Below are positions 30,620 through 51,547 of a DNA stretch of 54,811 nucleotides, piece after piece. This DNA comes from a virus. Lineage: Duplodnaviria; Caudoviricetes. The notes under the pieces are model-generated. The model saw nothing but the letters and a program-made list of their open reading frames with translations, did no database searches and was not told where the DNA came from. Each line of letters opens with the position of its first letter. Within the stretch, counting starts at the first letter, position 1. The position numbers were made by a program, and so were the translations under genes. The stretch is taken from IMG/VR virus record IMGVR_UViG_3300036806_000054, positions 1 to 54,811 of that record. One strand, given 5' to 3'.

Positions 30620-30695
30620 AGAAACACTTCGGGCCAGCTTTTGACGGCTGGCCTTCTGTGTGTTCGATATTGCAGGTTTGCGCTTCCCTACTGAG
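30620..30695 (-). ncRNA. Candidate divergent antisense sRNA, module A
   Basis: Extended -10 TGgTATGCT (30702-10, minus strand); contains CAATATCGAACA complementary to 30756-67; ends in a GGCCAGC/GCTGGCC hairpin. Confidence 0.5.
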
Positions 30696-30756
30696 GCCCA
30701 CAGCATACCACAAAAAAGCTATTGACGCGCAACTCGTTTCGGCGTAGTCTGAAAAT

Positions 30757-31140
30757 GTTCGATATTGACCTGAGATTCCTTCCAAAGAATCCCTTCTCAA
30801 TATCATGACCGCGCCGCAAGAGAAGCACTGGCGGAACATGAAGCTACAAGAGAACAATCGAGACTCGCATACGCCTGACGGCCATCTCAGGGATATTCCC
30901 CTCAGACTGCCTCAATCAGACGACTGATAGAACGAGCGTTTACGGACAAGGGAGAGTAAACCCATTGCCCTCTGTAGCCCTGTGAGAGGTCGGCGCGTTA
31001 GAAAAGCTAAACCAAAGTACCCGCTGCAAAGAAACCTATACGCTGGCTCCATACGAATAGGCAACTATTGCATGACCTTCCAATAAGAGAAGGCCGTGCT
31101 GCGTCCTTCCGCTTCTCCACCGAATAGGTTTTAAGAGGTT
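30757..31140 (+). ncRNA. Large structured non-coding RNA/leader, module A
   Basis: Promoter TTGACG(30722-27)-17-TAGTCT. Nested stems GATATTGA/TCAATATC, GCTACAAGAG/CTCTGTAGC and AAACCTAT/ATAGGTTT, plus an AATAG-GCAA-CTATT GNRA hairpin. No plus-strand ORF of 60 aa or more. Confidence 0.6.
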
Positions 31141-31145
31141 CGCTT

Positions 31146-31454
31146 ATGACACGTTGTTCAATTTGTCCGAAAGACGCTGATTACTTAGAAAAGAAAGAAG
31201 GGCCGCTTTGCAAAGGTTGTTGGTTAGGCTTAAAGATGTTCAATTTCAGTCCCGAACGTCTCAGCCGAGCTAAAAAGTACATGCTTTGTGGTTTGAATCA
31301 TCGGAAACAAAAGAAACGAAAACATAAGCACGTTTCTTACCTACCAGAGGACGTGAAATTTAACCGAATGGTTAGAGAGGAAATTCAGGCCGCGCCATTA
31401 AAGATTCCTGAAGTGGTCGCTTCTAAGCCGCGCAAGGTTAGGATCGTGAAATGA
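31146..31454 (+). CDS. Basic zinc-finger protein, EndoVII-like fold without catalytic motif (paralog of 51317..51547)
   Basis: CSIC...LCKGC.LGL..F...ERL.RA..Y; SD AAGAGG. Confidence 0.75.
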   Translation: MTRCSICPKDADYLEKKEGPLCKGCWLGLKMFNFSPERLSRAKKYMLCGLNHRKQKKRKHKHVSYLPEDVKFNRMVREEIQAAPLKIPEVVASKPRKVRIVK

Positions 31455-31512
31455 TATAATCGCTGAATTATTATATTGACTTTCGCCTACAAAAGTTGTA
31501 CAAAAGGATTCC

Positions 31513-31758
31513 ATGAGCGAACACGTAACTATCAAGATTACCAAAGCCGCAAGGGTCGGCCTTAAGCATATCGCCGTCCAGACGGGTGAAAAACAATACG
31601 CATTGGTAGGCCGTCTTGTTATGCAGGAAAAAGATAGGCTTGCCGACTTGGAGCGAGCATCACGTTTACCTCGTGACTTGAACCCGTCAAAGGGCGGTAA
31701 GTGGGTAATGAAATTCAACCGCAAGCCGGGGCCGCGTAAGAATGGGAGCAAGAAATGA
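31513..31758 (+). CDS. RHH-like small DNA-binding protein
   Basis: VTIKI strand followed by helices. Confidence 0.55.
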   Translation: MSEHVTIKITKAARVGLKHIAVQTGEKQYALVGRLVMQEKDRLADLERASRLPRDLNPSKGGKWVMKFNRKPGPRKNGSKK

Positions 31759-31955
31759 GTGCACCAACAAAACGTGAAGCACTAGAATCTGCTTTGTCCG
31801 GCATCAAGGAACGTCTGCGAGTGGTCAACCAAGAAATTAATGAGCGAATCATCCTGCGCGAACAGCTTTACGATTCGCAAGCAACCACAGAAGAAATGAT
31901 TATCGAGGCAATGCGAGAAGAACTAAGGAGAAACTATGAGCAACGAAGAACTTGA
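31755..31955 (+). CDS. Coiled-coil hypothetical protein
   Basis: ATGA-coupled. Confidence 0.6.
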   Translation: MSAPTKREALESALSGIKERLRVVNQEINERIILREQLYDSQATTEEMIIEAMREELRRNYEQRRT

Positions 31956-32121
31956 AACCGCTTTTGATGACGCCGCAGAGCGATGGAGCAACGAAAACCC
32001 GATGATTGATCGGCGAATGGCTCGATACTTCTTTTTTGCAGGCTCGACATTCGGAACGCAGGCCGTGGGCAAGCTCTATGGAGAATTCGTAAAAGCCATC
32101 GAGCCAAAAGAGGCGAAATGA
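31936..32121 (+). CDS. Hypothetical protein
   Basis: SD AAGGAG. Confidence 0.6.
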   Translation: MSNEELETAFDDAAERWSNENPMIDRRMARYFFFAGSTFGTQAVGKLYGEFVKAIEPKEAK

Positions 32122-32270
32122 TCGACTTTAATAGTAGTGACTACGACGAAGGATACGAAGAATCCTTTAACCATGAATGGCCTCCATCTGACGAAGATAT
32201 TAATCGTTGGACGGATGAGAATGAGAAGTTTCTCGCCCTTAATGAGAATGATGGGAGCATTCGAGCGTGA
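32118..32270 (+). CDS. Small highly acidic protein (50 aa)
   Basis: Not in the ORF track; coupled at both ends; MIDFNSSDYDEGYEESFNHEWPPSDEDINRWTDENEKF... Confidence 0.6.
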   Translation: MIDFNSSDYDEGYEESFNHEWPPSDEDINRWTDENEKFLALNENDGSIRA

Positions 32271-32956
32271 GTAGACCAAAAGGCGGATACAAACTTGCTG
32301 ACGGCACAAAGGTTCCGGGCGTCACAACTATCATCGGGCGATTCAAGGATTCTGGCGGTCTAATTCATTGGGCATGGCAACAAGGCTCTGAGGGGTTGGA
32401 TTTCCGAGAGACGCGCGATGACGCTGCTAATGCCGGACTTCTCGCTCACGATCTCGTGGACTGGCATTTAACCGGGAATGATGACGCTAAAATTCAGGCT
32501 AGTTTCGCCTTCAAAGTTGCTTCTGATATGGTCACGCAAGACGCCGCAGATAAAGCCATGAAAGCCTATGAAAACTTTGGTGCGTGGCAAATTCTGGCAA
32601 ACCTGAAGATTATTTCAACAGAAGAGAGTCTTGTATCAGAAAAGCATCGATTTGGCGGCACTTACGACGGGATTGCGATTGCGGAAATTGACGGCAAGCG
32701 AAGTCTTTGTGATTGGAAAACCAGTAACGCGGTCTATCGAGATTATGCAATTCAACTAGCCGCCTATAAAGGGCTATGGGACGAGAACCATCCGGATGAG
32801 CCGATTACCGGAGGATTTCATTTAGTTAGATTTAGCAAAACGGATGCGGACTTTGAACACCGATATTTTGGGGAACTCGAATTGGCATGGCAACAGTTTC
32901 TTTTACTGCGCCAAGCTTACGAGAACGATAAGCTGTTAAAGGCGCGAATTCGATGA
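32267..32956 (+). CDS. PD-(D/E)XK exonuclease (Cas4-like phage recombination nuclease)
   Basis: VPGVTTII, GGTYD, DWKTS and QLAAY motifs. Confidence 0.85.
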   Translation: MSRPKGGYKLADGTKVPGVTTIIGRFKDSGGLIHWAWQQGSEGLDFRETRDDAANAGLLAHDLVDWHLTGNDDAKIQASFAFKVASDMVTQDAADKAMKAYENFGAWQILANLKIISTEESLVSEKHRFGGTYDGIAIAEIDGKRSLCDWKTSNAVYRDYAIQLAAYKGLWDENHPDEPITGGFHLVRFSKTDADFEHRYFGELELAWQQFLLLRQAYENDKLLKARIR

Positions 32957-33294
32957 GCGATATAATCTCAATTCACAAAGAGCTAATCCGGCTCAGTAAG
33001 GCTCTGGCTGGGGCTGTAAACGAGTTTTCCGATGTCGTGGTTGATGCCGCCGAGAAACGCAGCGCCTATGACATATTATGGGCGCAGTCAATGCTCCAGA
33101 CGCCGGACGAGAAAACGCAAAAGATTAAGGAGGCTTTAGCGACCGAAGCATGTGCGGTTCAGATGCTTCAAGCGCGGGTTGCTGAGGCTACGCGAGACGC
33201 GCTCAAAGAAAGAATTCGAGCACTTGAGACGGTACTATCAGTTCAACAGTCACGTCTTCGCTACCTCGAATCAACTGAAAAAGACTTCAACTGA
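32953..33294 (+). CDS. Coiled-coil recombination-associated protein
   Basis: Helical; lies between the exonuclease and the SSB-like gene. Confidence 0.6.
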   Translation: MSDIISIHKELIRLSKALAGAVNEFSDVVVDAAEKRSAYDILWAQSMLQTPDEKTQKIKEALATEACAVQMLQARVAEATRDALKERIRALETVLSVQQSRLRYLESTEKDFN

Positions 33295-33310
33295 AAAGGA
33301 CAACACAACC

Positions 33311-33703
33311 ATGAAATCAACCGATGTTTTTAGCTCAAGATACATCAGCGCTGCCGATTTGAAAGATCGCGACGTAGCCGTAACTATCGAGCGTGTCGAG
33401 ATCGAAAAGATGCCGAGCGGCGAGAAAAAACCAGCCTTGTTTTTTAGAGGCAAAGAGAAAGCCTTTCTGCTCAATAAAACCAATTTCAATACCATCGCTG
33501 ACGTGTTAGGCGCAGACGACACCGACGATTGGGAGGGCAAGCAAATCACCATCTACCCAACTGAAACGGATTATCAAGGGAAGATGGTTGACTGTATCCG
33601 CGTCCGGCGCAACAAAAAGACCGCAAGCGCGTGGCAAGCACCGCCGCCACAAGACGCACCAGCGCCCAGCGACTACGATGACTCAGAAGAAATCCCGTTC
33701 TGA
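33311..33703 (+). CDS. ssDNA-binding/annealing protein with acidic IPF tail
   Basis: YISAADL...LNKTN...DDW.GK.I...IRV; ends DDSEEIPF; ATG 33311 has SD AAGGA. Confidence 0.75.
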   Translation: MKSTDVFSSRYISAADLKDRDVAVTIERVEIEKMPSGEKKPALFFRGKEKAFLLNKTNFNTIADVLGADDTDDWEGKQITIYPTETDYQGKMVDCIRVRRNKKTASAWQAPPPQDAPAPSDYDDSEEIPF

Positions 33704-33819
33704 TCCTTCTACCTGTCCGGGCTGTGTAACCTTATTTCTCCGTTGACGGGATAGACGAGGGAGCAGCCCTGGAATCTTTCTTCTTGACTATGCTTGCCAC
33801 TTACTATATGCTTAGAACC

Positions 33820-34029
33820 ATGAAACGTGCTGACATTAAAAAGGGGTTGGATCGGTTGCGCAGAGAGGTTGACCCTCGATTCGCTTCTGCGATACGCAAG
33901 ATCGCTGACAACTTGGAGGATATCCTTGATGGGCCTAGTAAGGGCGGCAATGCTCGCGCTAAGAATCTCTCCAAGAAACGCCGGAGTGAAATCGCTCGCA
34001 ACGCGGCAAAGATAAGGTGGAGCAAATGA
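33820..34029 (+). CDS. Small basic protein with KGG.ARA..L...R.EIA..AA..RW motif (leaderless)
   Basis: Promoter TTGACT(33784-89)-17-TATGCT(33807-12) places the TSS at ATG 33820. Confidence 0.7.
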   Translation: MKRADIKKGLDRLRREVDPRFASAIRKIADNLEDILDGPSKGGNARAKNLSKKRRSEIARNAAKIRWSK

Positions 34030-34220
34030 GTGAGTGGAAACCAATAGAGAACCCGCCGCGCAGTGGTCGATATATTGTCGGCAATGCCAAAGAGCAACGA
34101 GTGGGCGAGGCTCGCTATATGGCGAACAAAAAGATTTGGAAGTTTCCCAATGCGGGGATGCGATTTGAGGTAACCTACTATATGCCGCTTCCTGCTCCTC
34201 CGGCTGAAGAGAAAGGGTGA
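34026..34220 (+). CDS. DUF551-like protein
   Basis: MSEWKPIE.PP...VTYYMPLPAPP. Confidence 0.8.
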   Translation: MSEWKPIENPPRSGRYIVGNAKEQRVGEARYMANKKIWKFPNAGMRFEVTYYMPLPAPPAEEKG

Positions 34221-34276
34221 AATCAATGGGAATTATATACTTGACTGCTCCGTTTAATTCGTGGTAAATTCTCTCT

Positions 34277-35197
34277 ATGAGTCGAAGCACAATAAGCACC
34301 TTTCAGTTGTTCGAGTTGATTCCCGATCAGGAAACGGCTCGCGTCTATTTGGAGTCTCGCCTGTGGCCTAACGGAGTGATTTGCCCTCAGTGTAAGTCCG
34401 GCGAACGCATCACGACCCGCAAGGATGGTTTCTACGCTTGCAACGCCTGTGACAAGCTGAAATTCACTGTCCGCACCGGAACGATTTTTGAGCGCAGTCA
34501 CGTTCCCTTGAATAAATGGATTTACGCTATGTATCTTCTCGTGACCGCGCGGAAGGGTATCAGCTCGCTTCAGTTGGCGAAGGAGATAGGCGTAACCCAA
34601 AAGTCCGCATGGTTCATGCTTCAGCGACTCCGAGAGGCTTGCGGCTCGGATATGGACAAGCTGAGGGGCATTGTCGAAGTTGACGAAACCTTTGTGGGCG
34701 GTCTGGAATACGCGAAGCACGAAAACAAAAAACTGAAAGAAGGACGCGGTTCTGTTGGCAAGACGCCGGTGCTCGGAATGCGTGAGCGCGGCGGGCGCAC
34801 GAAAGCCTTCCCGATTGCCGCAAACGATCTGCCAACGATTCAGGCGGCGATCCATGACAGCGTAGAGGTCGGCTCTACTCTCTACAGCGACCAACACGGC
34901 GCATATTCCGGCATCGGCGGTCTTTTCTTCCATCACGCGAGCGTCAACCACTCTGACGGCGAATGGACGCGGGGTAACATCTCCACTAACTCGATTGAAT
35001 CCGTTTGGGCCGTTCTGAAACGCGGACTTCATGGCGTCTATCACCACGCCAGCAGAAAGCATCTTCATCGTTACGTTGACGAGTTCACTTTCCGGCTGAA
35101 TGCGGGCCGCGTGGCGCGTCATACTCTCTTGCGGCTGGATTCCTTCATCGCCGCCGTCGCCAACAAACGAATCACTTACGCGGAGTTGACTGCATGA
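34277..35197 (+). CDS. IS1595-family (ISXO2-like) DDE transposase
   Basis: Zn ribbon WP.G..CP.C, VEVDETF.GG, TNSIESVW, and Y.DEF.FR.N motifs. Confidence 0.97.
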   Translation: MSRSTISTFQLFELIPDQETARVYLESRLWPNGVICPQCKSGERITTRKDGFYACNACDKLKFTVRTGTIFERSHVPLNKWIYAMYLLVTARKGISSLQLAKEIGVTQKSAWFMLQRLREACGSDMDKLRGIVEVDETFVGGLEYAKHENKKLKEGRGSVGKTPVLGMRERGGRTKAFPIAANDLPTIQAAIHDSVEVGSTLYSDQHGAYSGIGGLFFHHASVNHSDGEWTRGNISTNSIESVWAVLKRGLHGVYHHASRKHLHRYVDEFTFRLNAGRVARHTLLRLDSFIAAVANKRITYAELTA

Positions 35198-35307: not shown

Positions 35308-35308
35308 G

Positions 35309-35962: not shown

Positions 35963-36004
35963 CATTTATGAATCAGAGCACTAAAGTGTATAATTCCCAA
36001 ATCA

Positions 36005-37862: not shown

Positions 37863-38948
37863 CTATTTTCCGGCCTTCCTTCGGTTGTCGTCTTTACAAA
37901 GCATCTGACAATTCTGTTCTACTGTCTTGCCGCCTTCTCGCCACGGCTTGATGTGGTCGCCTTCCATTTCAGACACCTCGTAGTGTTTTCGACACTTCGG
38001 ACAAATGCCCTTTTGCTTCTCGTAAACCTTCTGCTTCATTGAATCCGTGAACTGTCGGATTCCCAGATATTTTTCATCACGAGTAAGAATGTATGGATAG
38101 ATACCATTCTTCTTTTGGACATCATCGTCCGCGATGAGCTTGGCAGTCTCATCTTCAATCCTCTTCGTGTTAACGGGCTTGTCGTGAAACTGGTTATACA
38201 GCTTCCCCCAATCGACGGTCTTCATGAACTTTCTTTTCTTTGTAAAGGTAGCGTTGATCCAGTCGATGACACGTTTGTAATAGAGCCATAACTCATTGGC
38301 GTTTTGGTCGTGCTGGTGCTTCGCCATGTATTGCTCGATCTTTCCATCAGATTTCCAATCGATAGCAGTCTCAAGGAATTCTTGCCGGATAGGGCTTCCG
38401 GTAACGTAATCGCCTCCTATGACGTAGGCGGGACAGCCAGTCTTACTAAAATACCGTTTTGCGTCCGTCACCCAAGACCCGGAGTAAACGGCATTTCGCA
38501 ATTCCTGATCGGAGAGTTTTTCGCCTGCAATGTTGATTGTGCGAAACCAATCAAGCCTTTCACTGTCGCTTCCCGAACAGAGATAGACCATTAACTTGTA
38601 ATTAAGAATCTGCTCCTTCTTGTCCTTCGGTAAATTATGGAAGTAAATATTCTTGTAGGAAAAATCCCCGTTAACGTACTGGCATACGGAGATTGTCCGC
38701 TGTTGCCCGTCGATGACTTCAAAGTTCCCATCGTCACGAACTGCCCAATACATCACGTTCAACGGAAAGTTATTTTGAATCGTATTTATGACCGCGTCGC
38801 GCTGTTTGTCTTTGTAGATGAACTCGCGTTGATAAGGCGGACGAATATCGAGCTTGCCGCCATACCCAACAACTCCACCTTCGGCAGGCTTTTCTTCAAA
38901 TTCTTTTGCTAACTCGCGTACCGTAATCTCTTTAAGTTCGATCTTCAT
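37863..38948 (-). CDS. DUF262 (ParB/GmrS-like) + HNH endonuclease
   Basis: RPPYQREF, IDGQQR, F..IN..G..L..QELRNA; C-terminal C..C...DHI.PW..GGKT...N.QMLC...NRRK. Confidence 0.92.
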   Translation of the reverse strand: MKIELKEITVRELAKEFEEKPAEGGVVGYGGKLDIRPPYQREFIYKDKQRDAVINTIQNNFPLNVMYWAVRDDGNFEVIDGQQRTISVCQYVNGDFSYKNIYFHNLPKDKKEQILNYKLMVYLCSGSDSERLDWFRTINIAGEKLSDQELRNAVYSGSWVTDAKRYFSKTGCPAYVIGGDYVTGSPIRQEFLETAIDWKSDGKIEQYMAKHQHDQNANELWLYYKRVIDWINATFTKKRKFMKTVDWGKLYNQFHDKPVNTKRIEDETAKLIADDDVQKKNGIYPYILTRDEKYLGIRQFTDSMKQKVYEKQKGICPKCRKHYEVSEMEGDHIKPWREGGKTVEQNCQMLCKDDNRRKAGK

Positions 38949-39979
38949 TTGGTTTTTCTTTTGATGACAATGCGCTTATACAACGGTCTCTTATTCACCA
39001 CCGGGCCGTTCCAAAGAATTGTTCGACCATTTGAAATCGTTTCAGTCTTAATAGCACCAAGTTCCTCGCCATGTTCACCAGCATTGAAACTTCCAATAAT
39101 CTGGAACTGCTTCGGGTTGTATTTTTCCAAAAAAGTGATCGGAACACCCATCAAACCTTGAAAATCCATCGGGATGTCTTTTGTTTTTGAAACTTCAATG
39201 GCATCAAAGTTATCGTATGTTGGAAATTCGATTTCGTTATAAGTTTTATAAAGAATCAATTCTTCGTGTCTCTTGCTTATATCAAGATTTGTAAACCAAC
39301 AAGTATTATTGCTTGAGACAATTCGGTTCCCGTCTTCATCAATGCGGGCTTCAGTACCGTGCAAAGGATAATGTTTAGGAACGATAAAACCTGAAAAGTT
39401 ACGATTACTATTTATCCCTATCCAGAGCTTATCTTCCTTTATCAACGTGAACGTTTCCTTGTAAGTGACTGCATTCCAAGTTCCGACGACAAGAAACTTT
39501 TTATGGTACTTAGCTAACTGCGTGACGTATTCTCTAAACAGCGAGAATGGTGGGTTTGTGACAACGATATCAGATTGTTCCAGGAGTTCGATGCACTCTT
39601 TGCTGCGAAAATCCCCATCGCCGTCGAGGTGTTTGATGCCAATCTCATCGGGGCTGGGAACTCGATCACCGTCCTTGTCGCCTGTGTATTCAAGCCAAAC
39701 TGCTTTATCGGATTTGTGTTCGCTGAAGATGTTCGGTTGGCTATTCTTGTAACAGGTGGTGATGAGCTTTTTCAGCCCTAGCTTTTCGAAATTCTGCGAA
39801 AAATAAACGAAGAAATTGCTAACCCACGGATCGTCGCAGTTACAAAAAACAACCTTGCCTTTGAAGTGCTTTTTGTAGTGTTTGAGTTCCCTTTCGACAT
39901 CGGGAAGCCGAGTATAAAACTCATCATTTTTTGCTACTCTTGCGGCGTGTAAATCTTTATTCGTTGCTTTTCTCGCCAT
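38945..39979 (-). CDS. Adenine-specific DNA methyltransferase, EcoRI family
   Basis: KNDEFYT, CNCDDP, GDFRS.EC, TNPPFSLFREY, and MGVPITF motifs. Confidence 0.93.
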   Translation of the reverse strand: MARKATNKDLHAARVAKNDEFYTRLPDVERELKHYKKHFKGKVVFCNCDDPWVSNFFVYFSQNFEKLGLKKLITTCYKNSQPNIFSEHKSDKAVWLEYTGDKDGDRVPSPDEIGIKHLDGDGDFRSKECIELLEQSDIVVTNPPFSLFREYVTQLAKYHKKFLVVGTWNAVTYKETFTLIKEDKLWIGINSNRNFSGFIVPKHYPLHGTEARIDEDGNRIVSSNNTCWFTNLDISKRHEELILYKTYNEIEFPTYDNFDAIEVSKTKDIPMDFQGLMGVPITFLEKYNPKQFQIIGSFNAGEHGEELGAIKTETISNGRTILWNGPVVNKRPLYKRIVIKRKTK

Positions 39980-39982
39980 CTG

Positions 39983-40138
39983 TTACGCGGCTCTCTTTTT
40001 CCTTGCGGCCTTCTGCTTGTCGTACTTCGCTTTCTGTTGGTCGATCTCTTTCTTAGGAACGGCCATTAGTCGCCGCGTGAAGTCCTCGAAGCGTTTGAAT
40101 TCTTCGGATGGCGGTTTAGCTATCTTAGGTTTTTTCAT
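39983..40138 (-). CDS. Small basic IS1595 passenger protein (51 aa)
   Basis: MKKPKIAKPPSEEFKRFEDFTRRLMAVPKKEID...; ATGA-coupled. Confidence 0.65.
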   Translation of the reverse strand: MKKPKIAKPPSEEFKRFEDFTRRLMAVPKKEIDQQKAKYDKQKAARKKRAA

Positions 40139-41709
40139 TCGTCCTCCGAACTCTCTGCGGTATTTAGCAAATATCTAGCCTGCGGATCAACCTTTAGACT
40201 CGTGCGCCTTTTATCTTTGAGTATTCCCTTTTTCTTCAAGCCTTCAAGTAATCGCTTTGAGGCGGGCCAAGTTTTTTGAGTGAGCCGCTGAAGATCACTT
40301 ACGCTTATCGCGCCATGTTCGGCAGCGAAGTTTATCGCCCGTCGTTCATCTTGAGCAAGGGTCTTAAATATAGCTTCGCCCACGACGGCCATTGCATCCG
40401 CGTCCAGTAAGGCTTTCCTTTGCTTATAGGCGTTGCGTAATATTACCTGAACCTGAACATCGCCTTTTTGTCGTTGGCGGAATTCTGGCTTCGGTAATTC
40501 CATTGCGGCCATTGAATCGCGTATACGCCGCGCACCTTCACGAGCAGCGCGCGCATATCCCAGATATATCATTACGTCCATCAAATGTGGATTGCGCGCG
40601 TGTTGTGTGAAATAGATATTGTCGGGATTAACGAGCGGAGGGAAAGCGCCCGGACTGGTGATTTCTAGTCGATCTTCGAACATCCTTATTGCGACATACA
40701 TGTTGCGAATATTGTATGAGCGATGGGCGCACGCATTGACTAACGCTTCGAACCAAGCAGTTTTTGGATATTCCGGCTCAGTGTGGAACTTGTTGTCAGA
40801 GCCTAAGCGAGTAAACGTACGAATTTGAGAGTCAATAATTCGTACTGCTTCCTCAATTTGAAGCGGGATCGGGCCACTGTCAATCCAGTTATCTCTAATA
40901 GGATTCCATCGCTCGCCTGTTCCTTCCGTTTCCCCTTCGAAGCGAAGGAAGCGAATCTTACAACCTGGAAAAGCGCGTTGCGGATCTTTTGCAAACAATA
41001 GAGCGCAAGCATTATTTGGGATAAAGCCGTTTGGGGTTACTTTACCCAAGTGGCGCATCGCCAATAGTTCCTCGACGGAAATCTCTTCGCGTAGCTCTCT
41101 TGCTTTGTAAAAACTCGACGCATACGCTTGAATTAAATCGGTGAGAAAGTCTTGTGGATATTCGTAATCCGTAGGCTCTTGCTCGAAATCAATTTGTCCT
41201 CGATCTATTTCTAGTTCGCGAATTTCATATTCGTTAAGCTCTTTCTTTTCGTCACCTAATCGGACAAACGCCTTGTTCTTATTAGTGCGAACGAGCCTAC
41301 CCGCAGGCTTATAATGAACGTACATGAGAAGCACGTAATCGTGTTGGCCCTTCTCGTGTCGGAACGGAATACGTTTGGTTTCGCATCGCGCCTCCGAGCA
41401 ATAGGTACGTGCGGCCTTCTCAAGGTCATTTATATGTGACTGCTCTGCTTTTAGACATCCGCTGATTACTCCGTCATCCTCTATCCCGATGGCTATAAGG
41501 CCGCCATCTGGCGGTGAGTTGGCCCACATTGAGAGGTAGACGCCTAAGTAATCCGCTTGAATGCCAACTGGCTTCCGTTCAATTCGACGATCTTCGGCCA
41601 ATAGACGGAGCAACGAAGCATCGGCCTGTTCATAGATTTCAGACGCGGTGAGCAGCGCGGGCGATGGAATAGGCGGCTCAAAGGGTAGAAAAGTTTGGTC
41701 AGTCGCCAT
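40135..41709 (-). CDS. Schlafen/AlbA_2 + HATPase_c_4 (RecG C-terminal-like) + wHTH protein
   Basis: SMWAN...GG...IGIEDDG; YP..AWFEALVNACAHRSY; DRLEITSPG; RNP.L. Confidence 0.88.
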   Translation of the reverse strand: MATDQTFLPFEPPIPSPALLTASEIYEQADASLLRLLAEDRRIERKPVGIQADYLGVYLSMWANSPPDGGLIAIGIEDDGVISGCLKAEQSHINDLEKAARTYCSEARCETKRIPFRHEKGQHDYVLLMYVHYKPAGRLVRTNKNKAFVRLGDEKKELNEYEIRELEIDRGQIDFEQEPTDYEYPQDFLTDLIQAYASSFYKARELREEISVEELLAMRHLGKVTPNGFIPNNACALLFAKDPQRAFPGCKIRFLRFEGETEGTGERWNPIRDNWIDSGPIPLQIEEAVRIIDSQIRTFTRLGSDNKFHTEPEYPKTAWFEALVNACAHRSYNIRNMYVAIRMFEDRLEITSPGAFPPLVNPDNIYFTQHARNPHLMDVMIYLGYARAAREGARRIRDSMAAMELPKPEFRQRQKGDVQVQVILRNAYKQRKALLDADAMAVVGEAIFKTLAQDERRAINFAAEHGAISVSDLQRLTQKTWPASKRLLEGLKKKGILKDKRRTSLKVDPQARYLLNTAESSEDE

Positions 41710-41800
41710 GTGTTCATTTCAAAGGGCTTAGGTTACCCTTCGAAGCCCTTCGAAATTACATTGTCATCGTTTCCCGCGCCTTTGTCGAGTTAAGTGTTTT

Positions 41801-42690
41801 TCAGGCTTCGGAGGAACACTCGCCCGTCAATTCCTCGAACGTGAGGCGACGGCCAGTGAGACACTTGGCAACCTCCAAAAACCGATAGAGATCGTTTCCC
41901 ATGCGCTTGTTGAAGCGAAAACTTTGTTCATCGAGATAGCGGAAAAGGTGGAACGGCTCGACAGATACATACGTCCCTTTCAACGCTCGCTTTAAGAGAC
42001 TCCAAAAGTTTTCAATCGAGTTAGTGTGCACGTTTCCATCAACGTACTTTTCAGCATGGTCAATCACTTGGTGAATATATTGATCGGCCAATTCGTTGTA
42101 AGACTTGAGCGCGTCAGAGTAAACATGCGCTCCGGCTTCGACGTGTTCGCGGACAGAACCATCAAGCGATTTGCGGCGACGATCTCCGACTACATGGACT
42201 CTCACTTCGCCGTGTCGTTCGAGCAATCCCATGACAGCGACCTTGCCATAACCGCCCGTGCCTTTGATCTTCCGCTCACGATCATGCTTGTGCATGAATC
42301 TCGCTTTTCCACCGATGAAAGTCTCATCAACTTCGACGTGGCCGCTCAGCTTCTCAAACGACTTCGCTTGCATCGCTAATCGGATTCTGTGAAGCAAGAA
42401 CCAAGCAGATTTTTGCGTAATGCCTAACGCTCTGTGAATCTCATAACTCGACACGCCGTTCTTCGCATTTACGATCATCCAAATCGCTGGCAACCATTTA
42501 TCTAAACCTATCGGACTATCTTCCATGACCGATCCGGTTTTGATGGTAAACTGCTTGCGACAGTCTTTGCTCTTGCATTGCCAGAGACGACGCTTGCCGA
42601 CCTTCATGAATTTGCAGTCGTTGTGATTACAGTGCGGACAGGTAACGCCTTCAGGCCAGCGGATCATTGCCATGAATTCAGTGCAGCGAT
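41801..42690 (-). pseudogene. IS1595-family transposase lacking its N-terminus and start
   Basis: RWPEGVTCPHC, VEVDETFIGG, HTNSIENFWSLLKR. The first residues of the ORF-track translation come from the antisense of the host gene. Confidence 0.8.
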
Positions 42691-42864
42691 AGCAGTTTAG
42701 AGTTAACACCAAAAGAAGGAATCGATAAGGATAAAGCCCTTCGACATATTAAGGCCATTATGGGTTCGTATCAGCCAAAGCATGAGCATAAAGAGGCTGC
42801 CGTGGCGTTTCTTTTTAATGAGTGGTTCGATGATGAGACGCACCAACGAACGGAACGTAAATGA
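42691..42864 (+). pseudogene. 3' fragment of the gene interrupted at 37644
   Basis: SSLELTPKEGIDKDKALRHIKAIMGSYQPKHEHKEAAVAFLFNEWF...; no start codon of its own; stop is coupled to 42861. Confidence 0.7.
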
Positions 42865-44636: not shown

Positions 44637-45554
44637 TTGCCACGTTCCCCAAAACTCACTATCGTCGATGACGGCGATCCCAAAAAGTACTGGGCACAAG
44701 TTCCTAATATCGTTTGTGATCTGGGATTGCCCTCGCAAGCGTTGGCACTCTACTTACAAATCAAGCGCGTAGCGGGCGAAGGCGGAACTTGCTACAAGTC
44801 CACAAGAACACTCGCACTGGCATTAAAGGTCAGCACGGGCACGGTGGTTCGCGCGAAAGCTCTGCTTGAGCGAGACTGGCCACAACTCGGGAATAAGCCA
44901 TTAATACGCACCATAGAGAAGCCGAACCCGAGAGGAGGCAAACCCTACCATGAAATCAGAGTTACAGATATTTGGCACGCCAACATGAAAGCCTTTACAA
45001 GTGCCACTATTGAACTTGATAACCAAGTGCCAGAATTCGCAAGGCAAGTGCCAAGATCGAGAAAGCAAGTGCCAGAACCAAGTGCCACTATTGAACATAA
45101 GAATAACCCTCCTGAAGAAGAACCCAATAAGAAAACCCCACAAGAAGAAGTCTTTGAATTTTGGGTACTACACCTTAACCATCCGCGAGCAGTTTTTGAT
45201 GAAAAACGGCGTAAGGCCGTCGCCGCTCGCCTTCGTGACGGGTACTCCGTTGCTGATCTGATTCTCGCGGTGCGCGGCTGTAAACTTACGCCGCACAATA
45301 TGGGCGAAAACGATCGGCAGGAAATCTTTGATGACTTGGAATTAATTTGCAGAGACACGCCTCACGTTGAAAGATTTATTGCGCGCGTAGAAGTAGGAGT
45401 TAACGGAAATGGACACAAACCCAAAACAGCCTCAGAGCGAAACATTGCAAACCTTCGAGACGGGCTGGCACTCTTTTCGGGACGCGGTAGGCCGGATAAT
45501 CTTGAAGAGCCGCCTAGCTTCCTCGCTTCCAATTCCAACGGCAATGGAAAGTAA
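44637..45554 (+). CDS. Replication initiator (lambda O-like; N-terminal wHTH)
   Basis: QVPN...ALALY....G..G.CY.S..TLA; internal iterons; C-terminal VFEFW...R...V.ARL.DGYS..DL..A. Confidence 0.8.
   Translation: MPRSPKLTIVDDGDPKKYWAQVPNIVCDLGLPSQALALYLQIKRVAGEGGTCYKSTRTLALALKVSTGTVVRAKALLERDWPQLGNKPLIRTIEKPNPRGGKPYHEIRVTDIWHANMKAFTSATIELDNQVPEFARQVPRSRKQVPEPSATIEHKNNPPEEEPNKKTPQEEVFEFWVLHLNHPRAVFDEKRRKAVAARLRDGYSVADLILAVRGCKLTPHNMGENDRQEIFDDLELICRDTPHVERFIARVEVGVNGNGHKPKTASERNIANLRDGLALFSGRGRPDNLEEPPSFLASNSNGNGK
44998..45096 (+). repeat. Iterons (putative replication origin)
   Basis: CAAGTGCCA at 44998, 45024, 45045, 45066 and 45079. Confidence 0.8.
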
Positions 45555-46272: not shown

Positions 46273-46386
46273 AGCACTTTAACTCACACAAAGTAACGAA
46301 ACGATCTGCTCCCTCTACGCTGGGAGTTGTCAGGACGGTAAATAGATAGCTGAGCGCGCAGTGATGATGATCAGAGAGGGGATGAA

Positions 46387-47075: not shown

Positions 47076-47593
47076 ACGAAACCCATCTCGCCAACATACT
47101 CAAAAAGGACGGCTACCGCCTCTCGCCAGAGAATCGCGTGAAATCGCTCTCTAAGCCTCTTGGTGGTCAGAGTAGGCAGGAACAGGAAAAACACGCTCAG
47201 CCTCAAGTCTTGCTTAACGCGACCGCTCACAGTCCGCGCCGGGACTATAAATCAGAGCTAATTCAGCAATGCGAGCTAATTGGCCTGAGACTGGAGCCTG
47301 AGTTTAAGTTTCATCCTGAGCGAAGGTTCAGAGCGGATTGGCTGATAGTTGGCTACAAAGGATGCGACGTTCGCGGGCGTAAGGTGCTGGTCGAGTTTGA
47401 AGGTGGGCTGTTTTCATCGGGCAAGCGCGGACATTCTAGCGTGGCTGGAATCCTCAGAGATATGAGCAAGGCAAACGAAGCTCAGATACTTGGCTTTATC
47501 GTAATCAGGATCGCACCGTCGCATGTAGTATCCGGCGAGGCTTTGACGTGGATTGAAAACGCCATACTGTCGAGAGTGGAAAGTCTAGTCTAG
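47072..47593 (+). CDS. PD-(D/E)XK (DUF559/Vsr-like) nuclease
   Basis: EFKFHPERRFRAD...VEFEGG...GH...RD..K.NEA...G..VIR. Confidence 0.8.
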   Translation: MNETHLANILKKDGYRLSPENRVKSLSKPLGGQSRQEQEKHAQPQVLLNATAHSPRRDYKSELIQQCELIGLRLEPEFKFHPERRFRADWLIVGYKGCDVRGRKVLVEFEGGLFSSGKRGHSSVAGILRDMSKANEAQILGFIVIRIAPSHVVSGEALTWIENAILSRVESLV

Positions 47594-47606
47594 GGGAATA
47601 CAATCC

Positions 47607-47801
47607 ATGAAACGCTGCATCGAATGTCGCAACCTCTACCCTCTGGATTTCTTCGGGCGCTTCCAAGATAGGTGCATAGCTTGTGATGATAAACCAGTAG
47701 CAATTAAGGTTCAGCCTCGTGATTCCGGGGAAGAGTGGAAGCCCTTAAATACGATTATGAAGTGTCACCAGATGTTTATGAGGATGCCAAAGAGGAGTTG
47801 A
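47607..47801 (+). CDS. Zn-ribbon hypothetical protein
   Basis: CIEC...CIAC. Confidence 0.6.
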   Translation: MKRCIECRNLYPLDFFGRFQDRCIACDDKPVAIKVQPRDSGEEWKPLNTIMKCHQMFMRMPKRS

Positions 47802-47807
47802 GAGAAA

Positions 47808-48275
47808 ATGAACGACCATCAAAAGACCGCCCTCCATCATCATTGTCGGCTTGCGAGCGAGACGGCGCATCCGCGATTTGGTTATATTGCGCCGGGAGCT
47901 ATCGCGAGCATCGTACTTTCGGTGAACAGCGGCTACGAATGAATTGAGGCGGGATTTGGCGGGCCGGTCTGGCACGCATCAGCCGCGCCAATGCGCGGAA
48001 ACATTCTCGGAAGCAAGACTCTTCGCGCTATTGCTTTGAAAGCATTAGAGGGTGTTGGTGATGAGATTACTGGACAGTGGGAAGAATATACGGGTAAAGC
48101 CTTTCACGTTCGACGTAGGCTGACCAACGAAGAACAGAAACCCATCGGAGTTGCCGTTGACGTGAGAGGTACGCCCGAAGCGATTCATCGTATCAACGCG
48201 ATCAGAATCGTAATGCCGTTCTTGCCTAGAGAAATGTTAGAAGCGGAAATTTATGGAGAACGGCTACCAAACTAA
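47808..48275 (+). pseudogene. Hypothetical gene with in-frame TGA at 47940 (or two small genes)
   Basis: The frame from ATG 47808 continues into ORF 47991..48275 except for one TGA. Confidence 0.5.
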
Positions 48276-48309
48276 CTCGTCAACAACACTCCAATAGCAC
48301 AGAAGATGA

Positions 48310-48510
48310 TCACGCCTGACACCTCGCCTGATGTTGTTCCCAAAGCGTTGCATCAATAACAGCACCGCATATCTCGCAAACTTCTACAGGGAATCCGGGA
48401 TCAACCGACTCAGCAAAGTAACTCTTGGGCTTTAAGCCTAACCCGACAGTTCGCAGCCAGTCCAGTATGCGGTCGCGCCTCTCTTTGGGAGTAAGTTCAG
48501 CTTGGCTCAT
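48310..48510 (-). CDS. Hypothetical protein with C2H-type motif
   Basis: CEICG...H; last gene of the late transcript. Confidence 0.6.
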   Translation of the reverse strand: MSQAELTPKERRDRILDWLRTVGLGLKPKSYFAESVDPGFPVEVCEICGAVIDATLWEQHQARCQA

Positions 48511-48527
48511 TGATTCTCGAATTCCTT

Positions 48528-48782
48528 CTAGGCTACTCCTGCGGCCATGATCGCGATCTCTTTTTGGGCGAATTCAATCAAATCAGTTTTGGCTTGCTCG
48601 ACTTCATTGAAGGCATAAGAATGATCAGTATGTACGCTTCGTTTTCCGTCAATCCGCGCATGGTAGCGTGAATTAGTCCCGTCACCGTCAAGCTCGATCC
48701 ATAGCCAAATCAATTCGAGATCGGTAGCCATGAAGCCGTGGCCGAGCTTTCCCGGTGTTCCGAATTCTTCCCATTTCATCAT
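48528..48782 (-). CDS. Hypothetical protein
   Basis: Coupled to the upstream gene. Confidence 0.6.
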   Translation of the reverse strand: MMKWEEFGTPGKLGHGFMATDLELIWLWIELDGDGTNSRYHARIDGKRSVHTDHSYAFNEVEQAKTDLIEFAQKEIAIMAAGVA

Positions 48783-49378
48783 TTCTTAATCATTAACACT
48801 GCCCCAGCACCTAACACAAGTCCCAGAGCCGCGGCGTACTTAGTCAGATTCTTCCATTTTGCTGCTCGCTTCGTTTGCCTTGCAGCCTCAGTTACCGCGT
48901 CTGTCTTAGCTTTCTCGGATAATGCCAGAGCTTGATTCAACGCGATAATCTGAGTATCTAATGCCTTGATTGTGTCGAGTCTGATCTGGTCACGGTCTTT
49001 AAGGGACTGGATTAGCTCGTCATCTTTCTTTGACTGAGACTCAAGAGTTGTTATGTATGCCTGAGCAGCCCTTGATTCGGTTTCTAGCTGGTCGAGCTTG
49101 TCACTCGCCTGAGCCAACAAATCTCTAACTTGACTATCGGATAATGAGGTTGTGCTTTGCGGCGATTGCCCGAATGTCCGCATCGGAAACAGGATTATTA
49201 GAACGCAAGACAACAGGACTGCGACTAGCGACGTATACAACTCTCTTTTGCTCTGTTTGAGTTTTGAGGTCAGCGACTTCAGATTGTAGTTGCTCAATTT
49301 GTGCATCCTTAGCCTTCGCTTGATCCTTCGCCGCGTTCGCTTGCGATTCGGCAACAGCCGCTTGAGTTTTCGCAGCAT
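48779..49378 (-). CDS. Spanin-like protein (signal/TM + coiled coil + C-terminal TM)
   Basis: Overlaps the upstream spanin-like gene; the true start is probably downstream of the ORF-track start. Confidence 0.55.
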   Translation of the reverse strand: MLRKLKRLLPNRKRTRRRIKRRLRMHKLSNYNLKSLTSKLKQSKRELYTSLVAVLLSCVLIILFPMRTFGQSPQSTTSLSDSQVRDLLAQASDKLDQLETESRAAQAYITTLESQSKKDDELIQSLKDRDQIRLDTIKALDTQIIALNQALALSEKAKTDAVTEAARQTKRAAKWKNLTKYAAALGLVLGAGAVLMIKK

Positions 49379-49523
49379 CTATCTGCTTTTGATATTCAGC
49401 TTGTCGCTGTTGAAATGCAGACTCTTTGTAGTTGTTTATCCCGGCACCGACTGCGATGACTACAACTACCAGCAGTCCGAAGCCGATCAGAATAGGAATT
49501 AAATGAGCCTTGAACCATGCCAT
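49134..49523 (-). CDS. Inner-membrane spanin-like protein
   Basis: N-terminal TM helix plus Ala/Gln coiled coil directly after the endolysin. Confidence 0.65.
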   Translation of the reverse strand: MAWFKAHLIPILIGFGLLVVVVIAVGAGINNYKESAFQQRQAEYQKQIDAAKTQAAVAESQANAAKDQAKAKDAQIEQLQSEVADLKTQTEQKRVVYVASRSPVVLRSNNPVSDADIRAIAAKHNLIIR

Positions 49524-49531
49524 GCGTTTCC

Positions 49532-50407
49532 TCAGCCAAACCAGATATTATTCTTATTTGGATCGGCAGCAACATCAGCCGCCTTCAGAGTCTTGGCTAA
49601 TGCCCGCTTGTGACGTTCGTTAATCAGATAAACCGCGCTCAGGATAATCGCGATGATGATTAGCGCCCACGCCCACGGCGGAATCGACATAAAGACTTTC
49701 CCGATAGTCGCCAACACACCGCCAAGTCCGGCAGGTATTGAAATGTCCTTTGCCTGATCCAGTAAACTCGGCTTGCTTGGAGTAACTACGGTCGCGGTGT
49801 CCGGGGTAATTTCGGCAGGCGCGTCCGGCTTCTTATCCGTGGCCGTCTCAACATCAACTCCACCTTGAGGGGTAACGCTGACCTTAGTTGTCACCGCGTC
49901 GGCATCTGGAACCCCTAGCAAGTCAGAAAAGACCTTCTGCCGCGCCAGAACGTCCGCAGAATAGTCTTTCCCGGTTGTTCCCCTGTCAGGGTCGTCGTGG
50001 TTAATAAAGTTGCGGTACGCTGGCCCAGAACCGCAGTTGTATCCGGCTACTGCGCATCTCAGTAATGTTCCGTTAAGAAGAACATGTCTACCAGCTAACT
50101 CTCTTACTTCGTTCTGTTTCTCAGCCAGAACTTCACAGCACTTGTTTACTGCTTTGCCAACATCTTTCCAGTCACCTGACTTAACAAATTCAGGATAGGA
50201 TCGTATGTCGATCTGCCACCAGCTAAATCCATGATTATTGTCGCCGCCAACTCGTTGATACTTTGGATCGAATTCAGTCTCTCGCGATCCTATGGCGATA
50301 ATGAGTGACGGCTCGAATCCGTGAGTTTGCGCCGCTGACTCAATCACAGGAAGATGAGACTTAATCGAATTGAACTGCTTGGTTAGCTGTGCACGAGTTG
50401 CGTTCAT
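49532..50407 (-). CDS. Endolysin (GH23/goose-lysozyme-like) with C-terminal TM segment
   Basis: AIGSRET, GD..HG...WQID.R, AGYNCG, D..TTG.DYS.DV.AR; hydrophobic WAWALIIIAIILSAVYLI. Confidence 0.9.
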   Translation of the reverse strand: MNATRAQLTKQFNSIKSHLPVIESAAQTHGFEPSLIIAIGSRETEFDPKYQRVGGDNNHGFSWWQIDIRSYPEFVKSGDWKDVGKAVNKCCEVLAEKQNEVRELAGRHVLLNGTLLRCAVAGYNCGSGPAYRNFINHDDPDRGTTGKDYSADVLARQKVFSDLLGVPDADAVTTKVSVTPQGGVDVETATDKKPDAPAEITPDTATVVTPSKPSLLDQAKDISIPAGLGGVLATIGKVFMSIPPWAWALIIIAIILSAVYLINERHKRALAKTLKAADVAADPNKNNIWFG

Positions 50408-50471
50408 AAGAGAAAGTTAGATCGCTTGCTCCCTAAGAAGCGTAGACAGTCAATGATGAGATGGAGAAGTT

Positions 50472-50699
50472 TCAACATACCCAAGCAAGTCCAAATTGGT
50501 AAATCTGAATCAGAATGATGAGTAGCAGAATCAACAAAACAATTACTATCGTCCAGTTAACGTAAGGCTGATAAGGTGGCGGTAGAACGTGCGAGCAGAT
50601 CAACCAAAGAATAAGAAGGAACAATGCAACGATTAACGCGCCCAAAAGAAGATGGGGTAGGCATCCCAAACCCAAACCAGCAAGTAGAAGTGTTGTCAT
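50472..50699 (-). CDS. Holin-like small membrane protein
   Basis: Two to three TM helices; SD GGAGG before ATG 50699; upstream of the endolysin. Confidence 0.55.
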   Translation of the reverse strand: MTTLLLAGLGLGCLPHLLLGALIVALFLLILWLICSHVLPPPYQPYVNWTIVIVLLILLLIILIQIYQFGLAWVC

Positions 50700-50794
50700 A
50701 GAACCTCCAATGGTCGAATCCAACCAAATTCAGAGGGGTCAAACATCGCCGCCCATTCTACTACATAATCCTAAATATCAAGCAAGAAAATCGT

Positions 50795-50866
50795 CTCTAC
50801 TCACACGAAGCCCGCCAACGGTTGCTCGCTGACGGGCGACGTGACGTTTGTTGAGAACGAGTTGCT
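50795..50866 (-). ncRNA. Candidate divergent antisense sRNA, module B
   Basis: Minus-strand promoter TTGATA(50893-98)-16-TACACT(50871-76). 5' end GCAACTCGTTCTCAAC is complementary (13/15) to 50942-56; followed by a GCCCGTCA..TGGCGGGC hairpin. Confidence 0.55.
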
Positions 50867-50941
50867 AGAGAGTGTACCCTCGATTTGCACTCTATCAAAA
50901 AAAGTGTTGCATCGCAAGTTAAATCAGTTCATAATGCCCTC

Positions 50942-51308
50942 GTTGAGCATGAGTTGTGAACTGAAGTCTTTCCGATTCCTCGCAACCCTAAAAACAACAC
51001 TTTGTCGGATGATTTACCTATGACGCTTTTGAGTAATAGCGTAGAACCCTATTGGTCGGCTGCTTGGCTGATGGGACACCGTACTGTTTGGCAGACCGTC
51101 TAATCTTTCGGTAATTCCGAATCCTCGGTAAAGGCAGACCATAGCGAGGCTGCAAGGATACGACGAAGCAGAGCGCGAGAACCATAAGGACACCTCAGCG
51201 GGCTCAGCCAAAAAATCCGGCAATGCGCAATCGCAATTAAATCTTCGTGCCGTTTAATAAGCGCCATGAAGTAGGGCAAACCGCGTTCAAGTTTCCTAGC
51301 GTCTCAGC
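50942..51308 (+). ncRNA. Large structured non-coding RNA/leader, module B
   Basis: Promoter TTGCAT(50907-12)-17-CATAAT(50930-35). Ends pair (GTTGAG/CTCAGC); hairpins GTTGTGA/TCGCAAC, ACGCT/AGCGT, CCTATTGGTC/GGCTGATGGG, TTCGG/CCGAA, CCTCG/CGAGG and CTTCGTG/CATGAAG. Confidence 0.6.
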
Positions 51309-51316
51309 CTTCAAAA

Positions 51317-51547
51317 ATGCATTGTTTGATTTGTGGTAACGAAGCAAGTTACGGTGATATCTGCAAAGATTGTTCCGTTGGTCTTGAGAGATTCAAGCGC
51401 AACACCAAATATCTAGGCAGAGCGATAAGCTATCTAACAAAGAAAGCAAAACTGACAACGAAGCATCAGCGTCGCGTCATACGAAAGCGCAAGGCAGACT
51501 TGAGACGATTAATTGACGAGCAACGGAAAGACTCCCCTCTCCACTAA
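51317..51547 (+). CDS. Basic zinc-finger protein, EndoVII-like fold without catalytic motif (paralog of 31146..31454)
   Basis: CLIC...ICKDC.VGL..F....KYL.RA..YL followed by a basic helix; the only plus-strand gene in the late region. Confidence 0.75.
   Translation: MHCLICGNEASYGDICKDCSVGLERFKRNTKYLGRAISYLTKKAKLTTKHQRRVIRKRKADLRRLIDEQRKDSPLH

Follow-up and report, generated by a model that had tools for sequence, protein, structure and literature searches.

What can be the role of a small genetic unit which occurs twice in one soil phage and each time joins a pair of short direct repeats to a long leader and to the gene of a basic zinc-ribbon protein? The DNA in question is the whole IMG/VR virus record IMGVR_UViG_3300036806_000054 (54,811 bp, with a 127-nt terminal direct repeat), called the window below. 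The unit lies at 30620-31454 (locus A) and at 50795-51547 (locus B). An initial annotation had proposed that both loci consist of a divergent small RNA, a structured leader and a small protein. This shared three-part layout was borne out at both loci and in three related contigs. There is one cassette type, with two copies in this phage and a single copy per contig in three related contigs of phage or prophage origin. We consider that the cassette may be a self-contained phage regulatory unit, with a control architecture like that of type I toxin–antitoxin loci and with a nucleic-acid-binding, non-catalytic protein. This reading is tentative, and we put its probability at about 0.4.

One cassette type at five loci

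The three further loci are of the B type and mutually distinct. L003 lies in a 75.1-kb viral contig, L006 in a 71-kb contig of an Acidobacteriota metagenome-assembled genome, and L011 in a 63.8-kb metagenome contig. The same layout was seen at all five loci: a GC-rich hairpin, the first direct repeat (DR1), back-to-back promoter-like sites, the second direct repeat (DR2) at the predicted +1, a hairpin called P0 with GATT(T)CC in its loop, a distance of 375-412 nt from DR2 to the first open reading frame (ORF) without any conserved ORF, and a gene for a 76-102-aa Cys4 protein. The long upstream leader and the repeat pair expected of homologs were present in all three further loci examined. The spacing between DR1 and DR2 is 86-95 nt at each of the five loci. 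The cassette has no fixed position, being found in the early region, next to lysis genes and in two other contexts; its borders are sharp.

The repeats were confirmed in the window. TGTTCGATATTG stands at 30661 and 30756, and GTTGAGaacGAGTTG at 50850 is matched by GTTGAGcatGAGTTG at 50942; these are the sole copies of TGTTCGATATTG and of GTTGAGNNNGAGTTG without a mismatch. The repeats are alike within a locus and different between relatives: GAGTTG is found twice in locus B, AGGTTG twice in L003, CGGAT twice in L006 and TTGG(G)AA twice in L011. DR1 and DR2 are identical over 12 contiguous nt in A, 6+6 of 15 nt in B, 7+8 of 17 nt in L003, 6+5 nt with a bulge in L006 and 10 contiguous nt in L011. 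Judging from the sequences, DR1 and DR2 change together between relatives and do not drift apart.

The control region is where A and B resemble each other. The 21-nt A-tract/-35 pattern AAAAAARNTRTTGNNNCGCAA occurs without a mismatch solely at 30712 and 50897 of the window, and with up to three mismatches it has 5 matches against 0.94 expected. The proposed rightward sigma70 promoter with its A-tract stands as a pattern common to both loci, but the consensus promoter scan lists neither, TTGACG-17-TAGTCT (A) and TTGCAT-17-CATAAT (B) being under its thresholds. The -10-like hexamer ends 5-6 nt ahead of DR2 and reads TAnnnT at four of the five loci and CATAAT in locus B. On the minus strand, TGnTAnnnT lies 18-29 nt from DR1 at all five. 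Everywhere the 3' half of DR2 forms the 5' strand of P0. The GATTCC of the P0 loop is at +16 to +33 in four loci, L011 having GATTTCC instead; of random 60-nt stretches, 1.8% contain GATTCC. TTGCGCT, 15-17 nt past the start of DR1, is common to locus A, L006 and L011.

The GC-rich hairpin is placed 8-18 nt left of DR1 at all five loci. It belongs to the cassette, since the similarity of L006 and L011 begins ~10 nt left of it, the upstream genes being unrelated, and since locus B and L003 keep it without an upstream plus-strand gene. In these latter two its U-rich tail is on the minus strand. On the far side of the hairpin, L003 has a distinct promoter-like site for the lysis genes.

The leader RNA and the zinc-ribbon protein

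The leader of locus B has full-length matches in a profile search (nhmmer) in all four distinct B loci, with 325-460 bits. Its core (51002-51306) is 76-89% identical between loci, compared to 54-64% for the nucleotides of the zinc-ribbon ORF, whose identity at the protein level is 52-68% among the four B-type loci. RNAalifold gives the core 80 pairs in 14 helices, where a long-range helix of TTGTCGGA with TCCGGCAA closes a multi-helix junction. Over the four sequences 97.1% of 311 cells are paired, and 31 cells are G-U. Fourteen of the 80 pairs are changed on both sides, against 6.3 +/- 1.8 in shuffles, and 0 of 500 shuffles reach 14; in slid-partner controls 0-2 pairs are changed on both sides. 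The plus strand pairs 302 of the 311 cells and its minus-strand mirror 276. The consensus fold of three sequences has -72.1 kcal/mol on the plus strand versus -62.7 on the minus strand. The core is non-coding: there are stops in every frame on both strands of all four relatives, 8 of the 12 indel runs have lengths not divisible by three, and the variable columns have no three-base periodicity. This comparison indicates that leader B is a conserved structured plus-strand RNA of no described family, under a constraint stronger than that on the protein gene.

Both leaders had been described as densely base-paired and ORF-free. In single-sequence folding of the plus strand, the z-scores of the minimum free energy (MFE) are -1.42 for leader A and -0.33 for leader B, so that the pairing is no denser than shuffled sequence gives; support for structure exists for B alone, from the covariation in four loci. 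As to the ORFs, some of 30-79 aa are listed in these regions, and what stands is the core of B with its stops in all frames of the four relatives. The idea of two homologous structured RNAs of ~380 nt was not borne out, as structure is shown for B alone. Leader A has no match to the B nhmmer profile and 5 bits at best with the covariance model of the B core. Neither finds anything convincing in A. The leaders of A and B are not duplicates of a single RNA; detectable homology between them is confined to the first ~40 nt. No homolog of leader A was found in searches that included blastn in distant mode against GenBank phages.

No Rfam family accounts for these RNAs: Rfam 15 gave 0 matches at gathering thresholds in the whole window. 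Below the thresholds (E up to 10) there were EGFOA with 17.8 bits (threshold 37.7) in locus B and HSR-omega_2 with 13.3 bits; these weak matches were not reproduced in L003 or L006. A group I intron was also rejected, as there is no Rfam intron match and the region upstream of B and L003 is a promoter region followed by an oppositely oriented gene. The predicted core of B is, within nested pairings, a multi-helix junction.

Two observations concern the surroundings of this RNA. In L003, an extra 108-aa ORF (2700-3026) of no recognised family follows the leader and shares 32 nt with the zinc-ribbon gene that comes after it; the window, L006 and L011 do not have this ORF. In the window, the minus strand at 40262-40455 weakly matches the 3' part of the B core (covariance model 16.7 bits, rough E 2e-4; nhmmer E 0.0024). 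This match is inside a Schlafen AlbA_2/HATPase_c_4 coding region, and ~50 nt of it are like GCGCGAGAACC..CCTCAGCGGGCTCA..AAAAAATCCGG.

The ORFs downstream of the two leaders are paralogs, as had been stated: the 102-aa and 76-aa proteins are 28% identical by BLASTP (E 7e-9), and both are Cys4 proteins with a Lys/Arg-rich tail. An exhaustive profile search among 1.84 billion representatives (E up to 0.001) gave 17 proteins. These are the query itself, ten small proteins of the same kind (P0002-P0010, P0015), P0011 and five tandem endonuclease VII proteins. PF02945 was found in six of six distant proteins (P0011-P0014, P0016, P0017), with 66-141 bits, and in none of the four family members tested (P0002, P0004, P0007, P0009) at the gathering threshold of 23.6 bits; neither window protein matches it at E up to 10. 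Formal membership of the family in PF02945 is not supported by these sequence comparisons.

The ancestry from endonuclease VII (His-Me/HNH) and the loss of DHxH and Asn are supported by the profile alignment to true endonuclease VII proteins. Between the family and one such protein, hhalign gave a probability of 90.5% (E 1.4e-6). The alignment runs through the first CxxC, a gap at HVDHDHRTGKVR (HVDHDH...R), G-x-L-C-x-x-C with W in place of Asn, and the L-x-R-A-x-x-Y-L helix. The DHxH segment is deleted in the B type and reads DADY in the A type, and W or S takes the place of the Asn in CN. The protein core has no His, except residue 2 of the B protein. Like T4 endonuclease VII, Hpy99I and F-CphI of PF02945, the proteins have two CxxC zinc knuckles and the region G-x-[LI]-C-x-x-C-x-[LV]-G-L-x-x-F ... 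L-x-R-A-x-x-Y-L with its helix; unlike them, they have neither DHxH nor the Asn of CN, stay under the Pfam threshold and end in a Lys/Arg-rich helical tail.

Other comparisons gave weaker matches. The 'endonuclease VII' family phrog_2633 was matched with E 2.9e-4 (B) and 0.03 (A), and the best sequence match in the PDB was Hpy99I (E 0.0063). The AlphaFold model, with a mean predicted local distance difference test (pLDDT) score of 72.8 and ~90 over residues 1-40, predicts helices and no hydrophobic span. In a wide fold search (VIA), ranks 1 and 2 were beta-beta-alpha-Me restriction enzymes with weak scores (Z 3.3 and 3.1), Hpy99I being rank 2 with a root-mean-square deviation of 2.2 over 49 aligned residues. 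Foldseek of the protein model against the PDB found nothing at E up to 0.001, and ESM Atlas gave scores under 0.9, which are leads only. On the alignments, this is a rare family derived from endonuclease VII-type HNH nucleases, with the catalytic residues lost. Smad MH1 is one of the known His-Me fingers in which DNA binding has outlived catalysis (PMC5714182).

Among the relatives, P0011 (101 aa, PF02945 66 bits) has a live DHDH...CNGCN motif, and its basic tail, LxxLIxxQRxD...RRFR, is that of the dead family. It is possible that P0011 gives a picture of the active ancestor. It has no first CxxC, so its ORF call may be N-terminally short.

Further searches gave little. In GenBank phages there was no match by megablast of 20 kb, by tblastn of both proteins or by blastn in distant mode with both leaders. 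A word-based protein search with protein A returned itself alone. Scans of viral contigs with each protein, with the A-type alignment and with P0009 together with P0010 found none, nor did a protein pattern scan of metagenome contigs. No family member was seen in 400 other genomes of the phylum of G002; from the same genomes, L031 gave a match of E 7.4e-4 in a 296-aa frame, with 32 of 94 profile positions covered. No longer fused forms of the protein occurred among 7999 candidates, which is weak evidence. Three viral-contig loci (L008-L010) with the pattern GCAAGGATANGACNAAGCAG were rejected, having no match to the RNA profile. A 23-nt pattern gave 20 stretches in metagenome contigs. Two were true, L011 and L029, the latter identical in sequence to L003. 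The other 18 were rejected: 11 are a cyanobacterial repeat resembling a miniature inverted-repeat transposable element (MITE), and 7 are within coding regions of two unrelated gene families. The MITE-like element (L012-L015, L017-L019, L021, L024, L027, L030) looks cyanobacterial and has terminal inverted repeats CAATACCCCGGACAGT ... ACTGTCCGAAGTGTTG and GCGATCGC sites. It has the 23-nt motif TTTTGAGTAAAAGCCTAGAACCC in common with the invariant loop region of the B-type RNA. Judged by the sequences, this sharing is probably due to chance, though the match runs a few bases past the pattern.

Possible mechanism and competing explanations

We suggest that the leftward promoter would give a 65-75-nt RNA with its end at the hairpin and with a stretch complementary to DR2. 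This short RNA could pair with the single-stranded 5' end of the leader, invade P0 and displace it. By analogy with the divergent type I toxin–antitoxin loci, the pairing may change the stability or the translation of the mRNA. The protein would regulate by binding nucleic acid, with its own leader or the DNA of the repeats as possible targets, and would act neither as a nuclease nor as a toxin of membranes. Where direct repeats lie at or close to the start points of two divergent transcripts, these transcripts become complementary. This is the arrangement of the divergent type I loci, and therefore pairing of a short RNA with the leader is taken as the most likely mechanism. The earlier proposal of a divergent short RNA fits in its geometry, with complementarity to the 5'-terminal 12-17 nt of the leader: TGnTAnnnT is on the minus strand of all five loci, and the hairpin is kept in the cassette where no plus-strand gene lies upstream. 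The leftward short RNA is a candidate only, a reasonable inference from these minus-strand sites and the hairpin position.

The cassette resembles tisB-istR1, shoB-ohsC and zorO-orzO/zorP-orzP in several respects. The genes are back-to-back, the locus is duplicated in one genome, and a short RNA (a candidate here) is complementary to a short stretch of a long, structured 5' untranslated region (UTR), which appears as a direct repeat in the DNA. The differences are as follows. The product of the cassette is a basic zinc ribbon of 76-102 aa, theirs is a hydrophobic peptide under 60 aa. The complementarity in the cassette is 10-17 nt at the 5' extremity of the mRNA, compared to the 18-21 nt of pairing to long 5' UTRs that PMC3919570 describes for divergent type I loci. 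The leader core of ~310 nt is more conserved than the ORF, and the cassette belongs to a phage and not to a chromosome.

Several points weigh against the regulatory unit proposed here. The consensus scan found no rightward promoter at any of the five loci and a leftward one in locus B alone. The sole sequencing run containing the phage is DNA, no RNA run being listed for it, and the leftward RNA is a predicted one. By RNAduplex, the cognate short-RNA/leader pairs are no better than non-cognate pairs, and 203, 71, 93, 110 and 270 of 300 shuffles at the five loci are at least as good as the cognate energies. The central 2-3 nt of the repeats differ in locus B and L003, a pattern that fits a bipartite protein site and an interrupted duplex equally. 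In locus A, L006 and L011 the T-rich tail of the hairpin is on the plus strand, so there it may simply terminate the upstream operon. Leader A has no significant fold or homolog, and half of the 'system' thus rests on one sequence. The evidence for the structure of B comes from four related sequences, the same four from which the structure was derived. In addition, the 108-aa ORF between the leader and the zinc-ribbon gene of L003 means that this leader does not act via the ribosome-binding site of that gene.

Long untranslated leaders at the head of a phage operon are also found in P4 (CI RNA, seqA/seqC) and in P1/P7 (c4 RNA), where short repeats pair with an RNA of the same region. In these phages the regulatory RNA is cut from the same strand, whereas the candidate partner RNA of the cassette would be transcribed from the other one. 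The cassette showed no relationship to the P4 CI or P1/P7 c4 RNA in sequence or in Rfam.

The cassette adds a candidate structured RNA of ~310 nt, which has comparative support and no Rfam family. It also adds a rare protein family (~10 representatives among the 1.84 billion searched), in which an endonuclease VII-type HNH nuclease was stripped of catalysis yet kept. Should the leftward RNA be real, control by a divergent small RNA and a long leader, which to our knowledge has so far been tied to tiny membrane toxins in enterobacterial chromosomes, would extend to soil phages and to a soluble protein that binds nucleic acid. One copy is beside lysis genes and the other heads recombination genes, so the cassette may bear on the timing decisions of the phage.

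The rival that survives best takes DR1 and DR2 for DNA operators. The zinc ribbon would then be a decayed homing-type endonuclease, a sequence-specific binder of sites flanking its own promoter, which represses itself with no antisense RNA. This could be so, but we would not expect it. The repeats are non-palindromic and 12-17 bp long, their flanks are kept while the central 2-3 nt vary, and they differ between the A type and the B type together with the protein. The spacing of 86-95 bp amounts to ~9 helical turns, with an A-tract between the sites, and a relative with live catalytic motifs carries the same basic tail (P0011). I-TevI is described as repressing itself via a homing-site-like operator over its own promoter (PMC2988022), and Smad MH1 is a His-Me finger that binds DNA without catalysis (PMC5714182). 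The cassette also has features of the T-even homing endonuclease cassettes: it is a small nuclease-derived gene with its own promoter at variable intergenic positions, it has a protein-binding-site-like sequence over that promoter, as in the autorepression of I-TevI, and it has RNA structure upstream of the ORF, as in mobE, segB and I-TevI, where RNA hairpins gate translation. It departs from them in that the nuclease is dead, in that the RNA is a multi-helix one of ~310 nt and not one hairpin over the ribosome-binding site, and in the second copy of the site and the likely divergent promoter within the cassette. RNA pairing would accommodate the 1-nt indel between DR1 and DR2 in L006 and in L011 more readily than a spaced protein site would. 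Among the B-type proteins, those 52-57% identical are accompanied by quite different repeats (GTTGAG..GTTG vs TGTTCAT.GG). Operators would leave the complementarity of the divergent transcripts unexplained, and they give no account of the minus-strand TGnTAnnnT, the left hairpin and the strongly conserved RNA core.

The last of these features is central to another explanation, in which the cassette serves above all to make the B-type RNA, as a stable non-coding RNA or a ribozyme, and the dead nuclease is the dedicated partner of this RNA in a small ribonucleoprotein. The core is more conserved than the protein gene (76-89% versus 54-64% nucleotide identity) and has a closed multi-helix architecture with long invariant loops. 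In L003 the RNA heads the operon even with an extra ORF before the zinc-ribbon gene, and G001 and G002 have one RNA copy and one zinc-ribbon gene each. Relatives of endonuclease VII recognise branched nucleic acids, according to PMC5714182. We still hold this explanation to be doubtful. The core of B has no terminator-like site at its end, so it is read as part of the mRNA, and the A copy has no recognisable core although its protein is a paralog. A combined version appears questionable as well: here the B-type core of ~310 nt would be a new structured phage RNA class, would form a ribonucleoprotein with the dead zinc ribbon, would be gated by a divergent antisense RNA on its first 12-17 nt and would be mobile as a cassette with its own hairpin and promoters.

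A true toxin–antitoxin pair is unlikely, and we give it little credence. In such a type I pair the zinc ribbon would be a soluble toxin when over-made, and the leftward RNA would be the antitoxin. The geometry is that of tisB-istR1, shoB-ohsC and zorO-orzO (as described in PMC3919570 and PMC7708055), and the locus is duplicated as in zorO/zorP. This suggestion of the initial annotation fails at the defining feature, a small hydrophobic toxin: the product is a strongly basic Cys4 zinc ribbon of 76-102 aa without a predicted catalytic centre. The complementarity of 10-17 nt is below the 18-21 nt of the known divergent loci, and pairing would take place at the very start of the mRNA, over 370 nt ahead of the start codon. 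It is very improbable that the cassette is a decaying free-standing homing endonuclease with no present function and with the repeats and leader as leftovers: the nuclease is dead, the cassette occurs in three different genomic contexts with sharp borders, and endonuclease VII-type motifs are reported in free-standing phage homing endonucleases (PMC6083498), but the ORF is intact in all five loci and ~10 further family members, the RNA core has compensatory changes and is conserved above the ORF, and DR1 and DR2 change in concert.

Features of the two loci and their surroundings

Table 1. Parts of the cassette at loci A and B (positions in the window).
Locus	Feature	Position	Strand	Basis or remark
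A	GC-rich hairpin, T-rich tail on plus strand, terminator-like, left end of cassette	30631..30654	+	terminator-like site in scan
A	DR1 TGTTCGATATTG	30661..30672	+	exact copy of 30756-30767
A	extended -10-like TGGTATGCT, 29 nt from DR1	30702..30710	-	by pattern; not in consensus scan
A	rightward promoter-like: A-tract, TTGACG (30722-30727), 17-nt spacer, TAGTCT (30745-30750)	30712..30750	+	below scan thresholds
A	DR2, predicted +1 of rightward transcript; begins 5 nt past -10-like hexamer	30756..30767	+	repeat copy
A	P0 hairpin: 8-bp stem, 5' strand within DR2, GATTCC in loop at +19	30761..30804	+	MFE folds
A	390-nt leader, no fold or conservation demonstrated	30756..31145	+	z -1.42; no match to B family
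A	102-aa Cys4 zinc-ribbon protein, basic tail, A-type, dead endonuclease VII-like	31146..31454	+	ORF, profile alignment
B	GC-rich hairpin, U-rich tail UUCGUGUG on minus strand	50810..50837	-	kept without upstream plus-strand gene, as in L003
B	DR1 GTTGAGAACGAGTTG	50850..50864	+	repeat search
B	leftward promoter-like TTGATA-16-TACACT	50871..50898	-	consensus scan; also TGATAGAGT at 50889-50897
B	rightward promoter-like: A-tract, TTGCAT (50907-50912), 17-nt spacer, CATAAT (50930-50935)	50897..50935	+	conserved in L003; below scan thresholds
B	DR2 GTTGAGCATGAGTTG, predicted +1	50942..50956	+	repeat search
B	P0 hairpin: 7-bp stem, GATTCC at +33	50953..50986	+	helix 1: 3/5 pairs changed on both sides
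B	conserved structured RNA core	51002..51306	+	long-range helix 51002-51009 / 51216-51223 around multi-helix junction, then 3' hairpins
B	invariant CCTAGCGTCTCA at 3' end of B core	51295..51306	+	comparison of B loci
B	76-aa Cys4 zinc-ribbon protein, basic tail, B-type	51317..51547	+	ORF, homology

The minus strand of the phage carries the structural genes. The early region is on the plus strand and includes a Sigma70_r4/HNH-like protein, an exonuclease (phrog_298), an HTH_36 replication-type protein and NinG. Locus A is inside this region, with a terminator-like hairpin before it and the exonuclease genes directly after it. The first gene of the plus-strand block encodes a 364-aa protein (28103-29197) with a Sigma70 region 4 match and a C-terminal part like a phage 'endonuclease' (phrog_2340); upstream, a near-consensus promoter TTGACT-17-TACAGT (~27845-27873) was read by eye.

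Locus B is a lone plus-strand unit. Its neighbours on the left are a minus-strand holin-like gene, a 291-aa gene and an Rz-like spanin. The 291-aa gene was earlier labelled lysozyme-like, and we found no family match for it. To the right are virion genes, also on the minus strand. Between the hairpin of locus B and the holin-like gene (50724-50800, minus strand) TTGATA-15-TAGAAT was read by eye, and the equivalent in L003 is TAGACA-18-TACAAT. From its sequence this is probably the own promoter of the lysis genes, distinct from the leftward promoter of the cassette.

The window contains no tRNA or tmRNA. An island of lower G+C (0.41-0.45 around 38-40 kb) lies on the minus strand at 37863-42712 and holds genes for a GmrSD_N+HNH protein, an EcoRI-type adenine methyltransferase, a Schlafen/AlbA_2 protein and an IS1595-family transposase. 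By its gene content it looks like an inserted defence or counter-defence block. At 44998-45103, within the HTH_36 gene (44637-45554), there are 3-4 iteron-like direct repeats (AACCAAGTGCCA..., with a 25-nt pair 81 nt apart). By analogy with the lambdoid phages, this is likely a replication origin within the initiator gene.

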